Source of the DNA: Candidatus Saccharimonadota bacterium
Lineage (GTDB): Bacteria > Patescibacteriota > Saccharimonadia > UBA4664
Direction of reading: 5' to 3'
NCBI GenBank assembly: GCA_019352195.1
Contig: JACAFG010000001.1
Coordinates: 130,485-194,484 of the forward strand
Length of the DNA stretch: 64,000 bases
Numbering within the stretch: the stretch's first letter is position 1; the number at the start of each line of letters is the position of its first letter. Made by a program: the position numbers and the translations under genes. The notes under the pieces are model-generated. The model made no database searches and was not told where the DNA came from. It saw only the letters and a list, made by a program, of their open reading frames with translations. Positions 29,739-34,603 of this stretch are shown one piece after another.

Positions 29739-29814
29739 GGGGCATTAGCTCATCTGGTAGAGCGCTTGCATGGCATGCAAGAGGTGGTCGGTTCGATCCC
29801 GACATGCTCCACCA
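29739..29814 (+). tRNA. tRNA-Ala (anticodon GGC), CCA encoded
   Basis: Acceptor GGGGCAT/ATGCTCC with G3:U70, D-arm AGCTCATCTGGTAGAGC, anticodon stem CTTGC/GCAAG with loop ATGGCAT, and T-arm GGTCGGTTCGATCCCGACA. Confidence 0.85.
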
Positions 29815-30062
29815 TATAGTCATTTTTACTGCGTTTTAGCGCAATATAGCATTACATCAAGAGCTGAGAGGCTATGTTTGATTTGATTCAGCACGCAGCT
29901 AAGTAGCGCTAACAATAAAATATAAACAGACAACCACTGGCACCAAAGCGTTCAGAAGTGCCATCAATCCACAAAGCGCCATCACTAGCTTCCTCTGGAG
30001 GTCTTTCTGTCTTGGTAGGTTCTATAAAGGGCGTAGATATTGACCAAGATCGTAGCTCCGAA

Positions 30063-30081
30063 TACTGATAACATATCAGTA
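30063..30081. promoter_or_regulatory. Perfect palindrome TACTGATA-aca-TATCAGTA (operator-like) upstream of the first cassette gene
   Basis: Read directly in the sequence. A second 8-bp palindrome TGATATCA lies at 30095..30102. Confidence 0.3.
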
Positions 30082-30109
30082 CAGGGTCGTAGTCTGATAT
30101 CATAAGCTC

Positions 30110-30433
30110 ATGGATCACAAAGACCAGCAAAGCCCGCAACCATCCGAACGTGAGGGCTCAGAGCGTAGTAATACCGAAATTGATACCACAAAAGACCTGG
30201 AACGAATGGCTTTGGCCTCTGATTGGGCTCGAGCCGCGCACGACGTAGCCGAAACTACGCAAAACCCCGTCGCACTGCGCCTCGTTAAGAACTTCCTTAC
30301 GGATAGTGCCTTGGGGCATGAGACTCCGAATGGCGTGAGAAAGGTGGCGTCCTCAAGTGATAACCCCCCGAGAGTGGTGTTGGTCCCCGTTCTGCCGGTT
30401 GATTGTGATGTAAACGACCGGACTCGCGCTTAG
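30110..30433 (+). CDS. Hypothetical hydrophilic protein (cassette A, gene 1)
   Basis: 107-aa ORF with no motif. Its stop abuts the start of the next ORF (TAGTTGGCGCATAATGG context). Confidence 0.35.
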   Translation: MDHKDQQSPQPSEREGSERSNTEIDTTKDLERMALASDWARAAHDVAETTQNPVALRLVKNFLTDSALGHETPNGVRKVASSSDNPPRVVLVPVLPVDCDVNDRTRA

Positions 30434-30976
30434 TTGGCGCATAATGGAGGTCAAGCAGCCGCCTATTATGAAGGATCGCCGGGTTTCGTCTCGCTAAATG
30501 GGCGAGACGCAGTTGATCCTACCTGGAAAGGTATTTTGCTTTTGCACGAATTGGCACACGCAGAAGCGCATGATATGCAGCAGCGCAGGGGTGAAGATTA
30601 TAAAGAATCAGGCTGGTGGGACGAAGAGGTTGAAGTTTTTGCCTTTGAGCATGAGCTTATGGCAAAATTAGGTGGCGAATCATATGAAGTGTATGTAAAC
30701 GAGCAGCTCGAACAGTTTCTAGCAAAATACAATGATAGCGGGGTAGCTACAACAGGAGCTACGATTCCTCAGCTAACCGACGACGATCGCATCGAAGATG
30801 TTTTCGGCCCTAGCCTATCCGAGTGGGAGAGGAAGATCCGTAAAACAGCGGTTTGGTTTGATGTAGTTTATCGCATGTTTGACCGCAAATATGGCGAGCA
30901 CTCCCAACGGGACAAAAGAGGCTTCACAAAGCTTGTGTATGATCTCAACCGTAAAGACCGAGAGATCGAAAATTAA
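30434..30976 (+). CDS. Hypothetical protein with HExxH motif, a putative zinc metallopeptidase (ImmA/IrrE- or SprT-like)
   Basis: LLLHELAHAEAHD contains HELAH, with a downstream Glu-rich region. 180 aa. Confidence 0.35.
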   Translation: MAHNGGQAAAYYEGSPGFVSLNGRDAVDPTWKGILLLHELAHAEAHDMQQRRGEDYKESGWWDEEVEVFAFEHELMAKLGGESYEVYVNEQLEQFLAKYNDSGVATTGATIPQLTDDDRIEDVFGPSLSEWERKIRKTAVWFDVVYRMFDRKYGEHSQRDKRGFTKLVYDLNRKDREIEN

Positions 30977-31074
30977 TGTTTCGATTTGTATCAAATATTT
31001 GAAGAACCCTTAGTTGGAAACTTGAACCTTAGCTCACAACTTAAAGGGCATAGCTAACCCCACCCCCTGGCTCC

Positions 31075-31117
31075 GAGCGTAACCCAGTGCTAACAGACAC
31101 GACAATGCTCCACCAAA
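31075..31117 (+). repeat. Repeat R1: gagcgtaacccagtgctaacagacacgacaatgctccaccaaa, ending in the tRNA-Ala(GGC) 3'-end core atgctccacca
   Basis: Near-identical to R2 at 31784..31826 and related to R3 at 33991..34033. Its last 11 nt match tRNA 3' end positions 29804..29814. Confidence 0.8.
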
Positions 31118-31148
31118 GCAAAAACCCGGCCTTGTGCCGGGTTTTTGC
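31118..31148 (+). terminator. Intrinsic terminator hairpin after R1 (aaaaacccggc-cttgt-gccgggttttt)
   Basis: GC stem with a T-tract; because it also has an A-tract it is potentially bidirectional. Confidence 0.7.
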
Positions 31149-31350
31149 TTTGATAGTACGATCGGGATCGAATGTCGCGGGTTCGGTGACCGAGCGCCGT
31201 CTCGACGTGACAGTCTTCGAGACGAGGCACGAGAGAGGTGGGGAGGCCGCCTGTGGCAGGCGAGACACATCCCGTTATGCTCCGCCGACGTGCTCATACT
31301 TAAAGCCCCGAAAGGGTCTTTTCGATATAACAGCAAGGCTGGTACGCCTG

Positions 31351-31599
31351 CTAAGCTGCCTTTTCAACTAAGTCTATCCGTTTTTCTACGATATTGTATT
31401 CGGGAGTATGCTCAATGGTGGCCTCTATATCTGGCTGCTCGTGATCGGGAAAAACGACGAACCTTGCAATGTCCTTCGTAATTCTTTGGTACTCATCGAT
31501 ACGAAGTGGTATCACTCTGCCACAGTTAAGATCGGAGCATTCGCATCTAAAGTTTAGGGTTATGCTCTTGCCCGTGTCGCCCGGTGCTATTTCTTTCAC
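31351..31599 (-). CDS. Hypothetical small protein (cassette B)
   Basis: 82-aa ORF with CECSDLNC. It is the only substantial ORF between R1 and R2. Confidence 0.3.
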   Translation of the reverse strand: MKEIAPGDTGKSITLNFRCECSDLNCGRVIPLRIDEYQRITKDIARFVVFPDHEQPDIEATIEHTPEYNIVEKRIDLVEKAA

Positions 31600-32844: not shown

Positions 32845-32853
32845 GAGGCCTCG

Positions 32854-33777
32854 ATGTCCGTCCGCGCCAACAACCCTAACGCTGATTTCTATGTGCGGCT
32901 CGAGGTTGACGAAGACTGCACATCAGATCAGCTCAAGGCGTCCTATCGCAGGCTCGCCCACAAGTTGCACCCCGACACCAACCCCGACCCAGTTGCAGCC
33001 GAACAATTTAAGCTTGTCTGCTTGGCTTACGAAACGCTCGGTGACCCAAGTCGCCGGGCAGAATACGACCAACTGCGACAAGATCATTATCTCTCACAGC
33101 CGCCAATCCTCCGTCTCAGCGAAGTTTCGGTGGACTTTGGTTCGGTCCGGGCCGGAGAGAAAGTAGACCGGGTCGTATACATCTACAACGATGGCGGCGA
33201 TGGGGTGGGCGAGAATCTGGAGTGCACCACCTCCCCGATCTCAGGACCGTTTTGGCTTGTCGACGTTGCGGGGTTGGACGATTCTGATCCGGCCGACGCG
33301 ATTGGCAAGCTTGTGTTTACGACGGCGGTCGGCGCGAACGAGTTAGCTAGTGCGATCCAGCAGGAGATCCTGATCCACCTCATCAGTCGCCCTGACGTTT
33401 CTTCCCGGACTCTCGGATTGAAGGCAGAAGTAATTGAATCGCTTCGAGTAGCCCCCGCTTCATTTGGTGCCGTCACTTTCGACCATGCGACCGGGGTATC
33501 AGGTACTTCTCGAGACGGGACTTCGGCTCCGTATCGCCCTTATGTACGCTCCGGGACGTCGGCAACATCAGAAGCGCCTCGAATGATAACCGCACTCGTG
33601 GCGTGCTTGGCATACATCTGCGGACCATTCTTAACTATCTACTACGTCGTCAACGGAGGACATGCATCAGCGCCCATGCACAGTGCATGGCAAGGCCTGG
33701 TGACCTGGTGTTGCTTCGGTTGGCTGACTTCGTGTTTCTTGGTTGTCCCGATTATCTGGGAGTACATCGTCGATTAG
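32854..33777 (+). CDS. J-domain (DnaJ-like) protein with C-terminal double TM anchor
   Basis: N-terminal DFYVRLEV...YRRLAHKLHPDTNPD...FKLVCLAYETLGDPSRRAEYD is a J-domain with the HPD motif. The C-terminus has two hydrophobic helices. GGAGG SD lies 5 nt upstream and the start is 10 nt after the vWA stop. Confidence 0.75.
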   Translation: MSVRANNPNADFYVRLEVDEDCTSDQLKASYRRLAHKLHPDTNPDPVAAEQFKLVCLAYETLGDPSRRAEYDQLRQDHYLSQPPILRLSEVSVDFGSVRAGEKVDRVVYIYNDGGDGVGENLECTTSPISGPFWLVDVAGLDDSDPADAIGKLVFTTAVGANELASAIQQEILIHLISRPDVSSRTLGLKAEVIESLRVAPASFGAVTFDHATGVSGTSRDGTSAPYRPYVRSGTSATSEAPRMITALVACLAYICGPFLTIYYVVNGGHASAPMHSAWQGLVTWCCFGWLTSCFLVVPIIWEYIVD

Positions 33778-33919
33778 GAGCCACGTACGGCACTTCTAGG
33801 CTGTCCTGCCCGTCCTTGTGAGGCAGCTCATCCATGATTAAGAGTTGGCGAGTGCAGGTGGCTGGGTGAGCCAGGGGCATCCGGAACATCCCATCAACTC
33901 ATCTGCCACGTTAGATTAA

Positions 33920-33947
33920 GGCCCCCGGCGCTACGGCGTCGGGGGCC
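33920..33947 (+). terminator. GC-rich hairpin after the J-domain gene (ggcccccggcg-ctac-ggcgtcgggggcc)
   Basis: About 12-bp stem, but the downstream U-tract is weak. Confidence 0.45.
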
Positions 33948-33990
33948 TATTACATGCAGAAGAAGATACTCGGTTCTGCGCCTGGCCAAC

Positions 33991-34033
33991 TCCCGCTTCG
34001 CAGCGCAACGCAGTGCTAACAGAGCACACGATG
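33991..34033 (+). repeat. Repeat R3 (diverged copy): cagcgcaacgcagtgctaacagagcacacgatgctccaccaaa
   Basis: Shares cagtgctaacaga...atgctccaccaaa with R1 and R2 and is followed by terminator 34037..34070. Confidence 0.7.
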
Positions 34034-34036
34034 CTC

Positions 34037-34070
34037 CACCAAAATAAACACCCGAGCCCCAACCTCGGGT
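34037..34070 (+). terminator. Intrinsic terminator after R3 (acacccgag-ccccaacc-tcgggtgt + ttcttttg)
   Basis: Stem-loop with a T-tract. Confidence 0.65.
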
Positions 34071-34117
34071 GTTTCTTTTGGTTTCAGAGCCATAAATACT
34101 CCTGTACAATATCGCTT

Positions 34118-34603
34118 ATGGATAATACCCCGTTAGTTGACCAGTTGCGTGGCTACGCTCGCCGCGGTGTCAGCTTCGCCGTTGCTCGCGACGCGCTAGG
34201 TCAGGCCGGATGGAGCCAAGCCGAAATCGAGGCTGCAGCTGAGCAGTTTCCGTATGATTTAGTTCAACATGGTGCCGACGTAGATGGAGACGCCAATTCA
34301 TCGAGTGAGGCAGCTGCTATGGCACTGGGCGTCGCAGCCTTAAACGATCAGCGCAGTGATGCGCGTGATGTAGCTATTGCAGATGGTTTGGATGGCGGCA
34401 TGGGACCTGATCTCCAGTCGCAAAGTTATTACGAATCGAAGTTTTATGATGACATCGGTATTCCTTGGTACGTCTGGATCGGCGTACAGTTTGGTATAGG
34501 CGCTTTAGCTTATGTCCTGAATTTGCCAGGCTGGGTTACAGTAGTAGCCGTCGTATGGCTCGCAGCATATACCCTCTATAAGGCATACCAGCGCTTCCAT
34601 TGA
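34118..34603 (+). CDS. Hypothetical protein with C-terminal TM helices
   Basis: Start set at ATG 34118 after R3. The C-terminal hydrophobic segments are WYVWIGVQFGIGALAYVL and VTVVAVVWLAAYTLY. Confidence 0.4.
   Translation: MDNTPLVDQLRGYARRGVSFAVARDALGQAGWSQAEIEAAAEQFPYDLVQHGADVDGDANSSSEAAAMALGVAALNDQRSDARDVAIADGLDGGMGPDLQSQSYYESKFYDDIGIPWYVWIGVQFGIGALAYVLNLPGWVTVVAVVWLAAYTLYKAYQRFH

Follow-up and report, generated by a model that had tools for sequence, protein, structure and literature searches.

Probable serial integration into a tRNA-Ala 3′ end behind a miniature, integrase-less cassette island in Saccharimonadia

Tandem arrays of islands anchored at the 3′ end of a small RNA gene are known from several bacteria. 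In Dehalococcoides, islands at ssrA form tandem arrays delimited by a 20-bp repeat with a conserved 15-bp motif just upstream, and 15 of them have no integration module (McMurdie et al. 2011, PMC3146451); the authors read the units that lack the module as cis-mobilizable elements (CIMEs) (PMC3146451). The tycheposon islands of Prochlorococcus contain elements separated by partial tRNAs, along with degenerate remnants, and tRNA-Ala(GGC) is among their targets (Hackl et al., bioRxiv 10.1101/2020.12.28.424599). Tycheposons are defined by their integrase, a tyrosine recombinase in 910 of 937 cases and a large serine recombinase in the rest; many carry replication genes, and their attachment (att) sites are about 40 nt long (bioRxiv 10.1101/2020.12.28.424599). 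CIMEs and tandem accretion in the Streptococcus families of ICEs (integrative and conjugative elements) and IMEs (integrative and mobilizable elements) have been reviewed (PMC5704250). Here we analyse a 64-kb stretch of Saccharimonadia DNA (64,000 nt of contig JACAFG010000001.1; hereafter the window), in which the 4.9 kb behind tRNA-Ala(GGC) are probably a miniature tRNA-anchored island that arose by tandem site-specific integration and whose units, now devoid of an integrase, resemble CIMEs.

Like the ssrA islands of Dehalococcoides, the array stands in tandem directly behind a single small RNA gene of a streamlined genome, direct repeats of the 3′ end of that gene delimit its units, a conserved motif that cannot be aligned to the RNA gene lies immediately upstream of each repeat, and many units have no integration module. 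The differences lie in the anchor (a tRNA as opposed to a tmRNA), the repeat (11 nt versus 20 bp) and the size of the units (0.7–2.2 kb versus ~10–20 kb), and no unit here contains a CcrB-like DsiB integrase. With tycheposon islands the locus shares its position next to a tRNA gene, tRNA-Ala(GGC) being a common target; however, the host belongs to a different phylum and neither integrase nor replication genes are present in 29815–34706, which places the array outside the definition of a tycheposon. As in the CIMEs of Streptococcus, genes for integration and transfer appear to have been lost while attL and attR were kept, and successive site-specific integrations at a tRNA 3′ end would give rise to tandem structures. 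Unlike the streptococcal ICEs and IMEs, no related element with a cognate integrase is known for this array, and its units are much smaller. Patescibacteria are not known to conjugate. Integron arrays and clusters of attC sites lacking integron-integrases (CALINs) are similar in that their cassettes hold one or two genes and each ends in a recombination-site-like repeat, with no integrase within the array, but here there is no IntI, each site has a terminator and the repeat originates in the 3′ end of a tRNA. Since single-stranded DNA folds of the units were no better than those of shuffled sequences (z = +1.4 to −0.8), and no GTTRRRY/RYYYAAC pair was found, the units are not attC-like.

Anatomy of the repeat array behind tRNA-Ala(GGC)

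The repeated core corresponds to the last 11 nt of tRNA-Ala(GGC), ATGCTCCACCA (29804–29814). Its exact sequence occurs four times in the window, always on the plus strand: at the end of the tRNA and at 31105 (repeat R1), 31814 (R2) and 34031 (R3). With up to one mismatch there are seven matches against an expectation of 1.03, and no shuffle of the window reached seven. The core is specific to this tRNA, the second tRNA-Ala of the window ending in CAACTCCACCA. A first-pass annotation, made by reading the sequence, had reported three direct repeats that end in the last 11 nt of the tRNA, and the exact core in R1, R2 and R3 confirms it. The same annotation had reasoned that the match would prove coincidental if the repeats also occurred away from tRNAs; the exact core is found at no further site in the window. 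R1 (31075–31117) and R2 (31784–31826) lie exactly where it had placed them, whereas R3, given as 33991–34033, had been set 10 nt too low, the true block being 34001–34043.

The four copies share a common architecture (Table 1). Conservation is strictly 5′ of the core, over ~30 nt in all four copies and over 70–100 nt between R1 and R2; 3′ of the core, R1, R2 and R3 continue with AA(A/G) and then a terminator. The arm motif CAGTGCTAACAGA is exact in R1–R3 only. In R4 the arm motif has two mismatches and the core one, with the two half-motifs at the correct 7-nt spacing. Over the 43-nt block, identity to R1 falls from 42/43 in R2 to 35/43 in R3 and 26/43 in R4, that is, the further a copy lies from the tRNA, the more it has decayed. 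The three repeats described in the first-pass annotation thus stand, but not its count of three cassettes, because the diverged R4 closes a fourth unit that contains open reading frame (ORF) D. The four units measure 1.3, 0.7, 2.2 and 0.67 kb, and the segments between the repeats are mutually unrelated as judged by repeat search and alignment.

The terminators that had been proposed behind each of R1, R2 and R3 were all located, at 31114–31152, 31870–31901 and 34046–34074, and with its terminator included R1 folds with a z-score of −4.9. The terminators of R1 and R3 resemble each other in their 5′ arms (AAGCAAAAACCCG versus AAATAAACACCCG, with AA.(.)AAA.ACCCG in common), so that the internal junctions look like complete arm–core–arm sites. 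The weak hairpin behind R4 could be the original terminator of the tRNA. For gene calls we used the deposited annotation of contig JABBYD010000010.1 from the metagenome-assembled genome (MAG) GCA_017884045.1 (Candidatus Saccharibacteria, NCBI). An independent Logan assembly of run SRR11551193 contains the same array, with 100% matches to every repeat, and the array is therefore no quirk of one assembler. A Logan contig that ends inside the tRNA was considered as a sign of population variation and rejected, since tRNA-Ala genes have a common 5′ sequence.

From this anatomy we infer a recombination mechanism, an order of insertion and a recombinase, of either the tyrosine type or a large serine type like CcrB/Dsi. 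An incoming circular element would carry an attP-like site whose parts are the conserved arm, a core of 11 nt that matches the tRNA 3′ end exactly and a terminator. Recombination inside the core would rebuild the tRNA and place the terminator of the element directly behind it. Older insertions would be pushed distally, leaving R1, R2 and R3 as internal arm–core–terminator junctions, with R4, at the far end, as the oldest and most decayed one. Today the units hold only cargo or debris, with no recombinase; as CIME-like cassettes, decayed or non-autonomous, they would be movable only if a recombinase were supplied in trans.

One plus-strand reading frame is open through the arms of R2 and R3 (AWLTSISASERNPVLTDTAMLHQ and AWPTPASQRNAVLTEHTMLHQ; regions compared, 31048–31117, 31757–31826 and 33980–34043). 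In this frame the R3 arm has an in-frame 6-nt indel, and the differences from R3 fall at third positions in 9/16 (R1) and 8/16 (R2) cases, a lean that has no significance once three frames are tested. The arm might have come from the 3′ end of a gene formerly adjacent to attP.

Cassette contents and cassette A at other tRNA anchors

The best evidence comes from comparison with other genomes. Homologues of cassette A are present in three other metagenomic Patescibacteria loci, L086/L087, L083 and L085 (L103 represents the locus of L086 in a different sample). In L086, L087 and L103 the nucleotide identity to cassette A is 90%, and the homology is limited to 30091–31035 of the window. The gene is flanked in L086 by the 29-nt direct repeats GTTCGGAACTTGAACCCTAGCCCGCCCCA and GTTCGAAACTTCAACCCTAGCTCGCCTCA (713–741 and 1723–1751), both of which have a tRNA-His-like 3′ end, the first being followed by the terminator AAAGACCCGAAAGGGTCTTTTT. 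In L083 it lies downstream of tRNA-His(GTG), a 20/20-nt copy of whose 3′ end is found 98 nt past the tRNA, and a 38-nt repeat (core plus terminator) stands on both sides of the gene. In L085 the gene is directly behind tRNA-His, with the same motif GGAATTAT past the CCA. The downstream neighbours of cassette A differ between all of these loci. It is therefore a mobile unit of one gene, with tRNA 3′ ends as docking sites, and moves independently between tRNA anchors in other genomes.

Traces of the tRNA-His specificity remain in the window. Homology to L086 breaks inside the His-type att relic at 31013–31041, after TAGCTCRC, and this relic explains the ccttagct block at R1. In the first-pass annotation that block (CCTTAGCT) was part of an upstream extension shared by R1 and R2; it is indeed present at 31027–31034 and 31720–31727, but to call it a stretch of a single extended repeat would be too simple. 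R2 matches the His-type repeat over only 8–11 nt (AAGCCTTAGCT), and the R2 block is a putative homologue of that repeat. The core-like site ATGCTCCGCCG is, taken alone, within chance expectation. The His-type relics make the island a patchwork of at least two att specificities.

The contents of the cassettes are largely as first described, namely an HExxH protein in A, a small Cys-containing ORF on the minus strand in B and a vWA/J-domain pair in C, with two caveats. Gene A is a single gene broken by an in-frame TAG (30431–30433), protein alignment showing intact homologues of 282–283 aa, and ORF B is not called in the deposited annotation, is absent from the protein collection and has no family matches. 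Judged by its sequence, gene A is a pseudogene here, and the in-frame stop together with the uncalled ORF B points to decay of the cargo. Genes of the three certain cassettes, whether single or paired, all have one orientation. Cassette C has a GC content of 0.56–0.59 versus ~0.49 in the flanks. ORF D has no Pfam family, and a search of the cargo with the PADLOC and PHROGs libraries gave no matches except the J domain. For the cassette A protein, AlphaFold gave a poor model, with a predicted local distance difference test (pLDDT) score of 46.

In-frame TAG stops arose independently in the gene A copies of the window and of L086/L087 (L086 1362–1364), and L103 has an intact copy; at other places in the window TAG serves as an ordinary stop. 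The vWA and J-domain genes are also adjacent in L090 (7225–9047), where the J-domain protein is 46% identical at the amino acid level and the pair lies among housekeeping genes with no tRNA nearby. No description of this pair was found in the conflict-system literature that was searched.

Repeats of tRNA 3′ ends were also surveyed for 112 tRNAs in the fetched loci, using 16-nt 3′-end repeats with up to two mismatches and discounting neighbouring tRNA paralogues. Five matches were downstream on the same strand, none upstream and one in reverse complement. Among these cases are very small, ‘empty’ units, in which the tRNA 3′ end recurs as a 20-nt copy 60–130 nt downstream of the tRNA, with a terminator or a spacer between. 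The sequence right after the CCA is alike across different tRNAs and genomes (GGAATTAT, GTTATTAT, GGTATTAT and AGAATTAT), a resemblance that suggests a single family of elements for which several tRNAs are targets. A further case is L003 (8130–9906), where a 1.7-kb unit stands behind tRNA-Trp and closes with a 19/20-nt match to the tRNA 3′ end; it encodes a trypsin-like protease and, beside the distal repeat, an N-terminally truncated large serine recombinase, and is a decaying element caught midway.

Table 1. Features of the tRNA-Ala(GGC) array in window coordinates (last row, coordinates in the named loci)
Feature	Position	Strand	Basis
tRNA-Ala(GGC), anchor (attL side)	29739..29814	+	ARAGORN; Rfam tRNA model, 59.8 bits
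Spacer, tRNA to cassette A	29815..30090	.	no homologue (BLAST against related loci), no strong terminator
Cassette A homology block with gene A (30110–30976, HExxH protein)	30091..31035	+	90% nucleotide identity to L086/L087
His-type att repeat relic GTTGGAAACTTGAACCTTAGCTCACAACT, contains ccttagct block	31013..31041	+	alignment to the L086 29-nt repeats
R1: arm, core (31105–31115) and AA; 43-nt block 31075–31117	31048..31117	+	repeat family, motif matches, alignment
Terminator of R1: 17-bp perfect stem, then T run	31114..31152	+	inverted repeat
Core-like site ATGCTCCGCCG (2 mismatches) and terminator AAAGCCCCGAAAGGGTCTTTT (31290–31323)	31277..31323	+	homologue of the left junction of the L086 cassette (core and terminator)
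ORF B, 82 aa, Cys-containing, doubtful gene	31351..31599	-	ORF list
R2: CCTTAGCT block (31720–31727), arm, core (31814–31824) and AA; 43-nt block 31784–31826	31720..31826	+	repeats, alignment
Terminator of R2: 13-bp stem, then T run; starts 44 nt past the repeat	31870..31911	+	terminator search
Cassette C: vWA protein (32074–32844) and J-domain membrane protein (32854–33777)	32074..33777	+	Pfam
GC-rich hairpin behind the J-domain gene	33920..33947	+	sequence, fold
R3: arm, core (34031–34041) and AA; 43-nt block 34001–34043	33974..34043	+	repeats, alignment
Terminator of R3, bidirectional	34046..34074	+	inverted repeat, terminator search
ORF D, cassette D: 161 aa, hydrophobic C-terminal stretches	34118..34603	+	gene call; hydrophobicity apparent from the sequence
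R4 CAGCGCTATCAGAACATATAATGCTCTACCA: most decayed copy, distal boundary of the island; core ATGCTCTACCA (34696–34706)	34676..34706	+	motif matches
Weak hairpin and T run behind R4	34710–34739	+	sequence
‘Empty’ units: tRNA-Gly and tRNA-His in L083; tRNA-Pro in L053	L083 145–300, 2698–2872; L053 14443–14665

Searches for a recombinase and the origin of the array

No cognate recombinase was found in or beside the island by Pfam or annotation of the window genes, and the known ORFs of the island leave no space for an integrase remnant longer than ~150 aa. The earlier statement that no integrase remains thus holds for the island, with no recombinase gene among its called genes. The sole recombinase found in the window, a large serine enzyme of 532 aa (59514–61112, minus strand), lies at tRNA-Gln, 25 kb off, and its stop codon overlaps the 3′ end of tRNA-Gln(CTG). 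The only recombinases seen beside tRNA genes or tRNA repeats in these genomes are of the large serine type and, given also the short 11-nt identity, a CcrB/Dsi-like enzyme is as plausible as a tyrosine integrase.

Serial integration into the tRNA 3′ end followed by loss of the integrase, as the first-pass annotation had proposed, is supported by the position of the arm, the terminators, the decay gradient and the presence of cassette A at tRNA-His. The arm 5′ and the terminator 3′ of the core are arranged as expected of P-arm/core/P′-arm junctions. Copies of the tRNA 3′ end are repeated directly, on one strand, behind an intact tRNA with unrelated, mobile content between them, as expected of tandem integration and, as expected of CIMEs, every unit is bounded by cores and no recombinase domains were found in the units. 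Several observations count against it. The cognate recombinase that tandem integration would require, in at least one unit or elsewhere in the genome, was not found among the genes in or next to the island: neither an integrase nor a fragment of one was seen in the island (29815–34706) among called genes and their Pfam matches, and there was no tyrosine recombinase among the Pfam matches on called genes from ~2,700 to 64,000 of the window. The identity between repeat and tRNA extends over just 11 nt (15 with one indel), tRNA att sites usually being 20–40 nt long, and directly 3′ of tRNA-Ala there is neither the AAA nor the terminator seen at R1–R3. Cassette C is the sole unit that is clearly distinct in GC content. 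No close relative of the MAG was present in the collections that could show an empty or differently filled site, and a search for the repeat unit, which the first-pass annotation had proposed for related genomes, returned nothing: the arm-plus-core pattern CAGNGCTANCAGANNNNNNNATGCTCNACCA had 0 matches in the genome, metagenome and viral collections, which means that no intact attP-bearing element is known.

Other searches gave similar results. In viral contigs, arm-only and His-junction patterns had chance matches only, with no tRNA context. Synteny was followed through the NRAMP gene to 80 loci, at most 80% identical, none of which had the tRNA or the repeat, and through the VOC gene, whose best match was a paralogue in the same MAG. 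A metagenome scan with the 25-mer from the tRNA-Ala 3′ end found nine other tRNA-Ala genes in unrelated organisms, none with downstream repeats.

Three other explanations have to be weighed against tandem integration. The first-pass annotation had considered that the conserved unit could be a small terminated RNA family; in this case the ~100–140-nt unit (arm, CCA-ending core and terminator) would represent an RNA or 3′-untranslated-region family that mimics the tRNA-Ala acceptor end. The units are oriented like the tRNA, each is then followed by a terminator and, 60 nt upstream in R2, GGAGCAT could pair perfectly with ATGCTCC, while GGGCAT in R1 could pair with a G–U. However, neither R3 nor R4 has this acceptor-like 5′ strand where it would be expected from the alignment, and the idea gained no support from Rfam, which matches the tRNA alone, from single folds, which without the terminator are no better than shuffles (z = 0.0, −1.0, −0.4 and −0.8), or from RNAalifold, whose consensus of the four units reaches just −4 kcal/mol with no covarying fold. 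There is also no promoter-like site upstream on the plus strand, and the tRNA-His ends around cassette A elsewhere would be left unexplained. We consider an RNA family highly improbable. Copying of an arm-plus-terminator module, whether by local duplication or by homologous recombination such as unequal crossing-over, would require no site-specific recombinase, and none was found; the 11-nt match would then stem from one ancient event. The near-identity of R1 and R2 (42/43, with ~100 nt in common) could reflect recent duplication or gene conversion. This process, by contrast, accounts poorly for sequences between the repeats that are mutually unrelated, for a core that is exact in three copies although the arms diverge and for a cassette A that moves as a unit between tRNA anchors with repeats matching the local tRNA, and we regard it as very unlikely to have built the array.

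The third alternative is an active integron-like platform. Here the tRNA 3′ end would be a capture site for promoter-less cassettes, each with one repeat unit, and the recombinase would be encoded elsewhere in the genome. The units are cassette-sized (0.7–2.2 kb, one or two genes) with no integrase fragment in any of them, the internal junctions resemble complete attP-like sites, ‘empty’ units of 60–130 nt lie between tRNA and partial repeat in L083 and L053, and the anchors of cassette A include tRNA-His as well as tRNA-Ala. Yet no recombinase has been identified, the units do not adopt an attC-like single-strand hairpin fold, the gene A pseudogene and the doubtful ORF B fit decay better than an active system, and R3 and R4 are decayed. 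That the locus is such a platform is, in our estimate, quite unlikely, and tandem integration with subsequent loss of the integrase is the reading that we favour.

As it stands, the locus is a clear but ordinary instance of a known process. What is unusual are the miniature units, the lack even of integrase fragments and the same cassette at two different tRNA anchors, and for these reasons we keep open, as an unlikely prospect, that Saccharimonadia possess an integron-like, tRNA-anchored cassette system. Such a system may consist of recombinase-less cassettes of 0.1–2 kb, each with one attP-like site (arm, tRNA 3′ core and terminator). The recombinase, perhaps a large serine enzyme, would act in trans, capturing them behind tRNAs and shuffling them among His, Ala, Pro and Gly anchors. 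If true, this would be a dedicated route by which ultra-small genomes swap single accessory genes and, if the trans-acting recombinase were found, the locus would represent a compact cassette-capture platform. Patescibacteria have tiny genomes, and their gain of accessory genes is poorly documented. The locus and the related contigs show single genes on the move as mini-cassettes with terminators, which dock at the 3′ ends of tRNAs and are able to change anchor. In these MAGs the limits of islands are marked by partial tRNA ends, and what lies between should be regarded as accessory and possibly decaying cargo.

Neighbouring genes and other features of the window

At the distal edge of the island, the VOC/glyoxalase gene (34849–35253) has a paralogue of 75% identity in the same MAG, on a different contig (L091, 10001–10396). 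Among the named relatives that come next in similarity are Microbacteriaceae (Cryobacterium, Leifsonia and Rathayibacter) at ~65–67%, which hints at gene exchange with Actinobacteria.

Next to the serine recombinase at tRNA-Gln there are small phage-like genes, DUF5659 among others (whole region, 59454–64000). Beyond the window (L102, to ~72.6 kb of the contig) follow an AAA_15/DUF4435 ATPase and a 1053-aa helicase–PLD protein. No partial tRNA-Gln repeat was found within 13 kb; the region looks like an integrated element with defence cargo.

Elsewhere in the window, a small HTH_38/23/28 protein, of a type that also occurs at the N-termini of transposases, is encoded at 23710–24147, and an IS1595-family DDE transposase (54199–55023) lies between SMC and rpsP. 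A class I aminoacyl-tRNA synthetase of 1120 aa (44001–47363; tRNA-synt_1 and Anticodon_1, leucyl type) has NUDIX domain matches inside, an unusual insertion.

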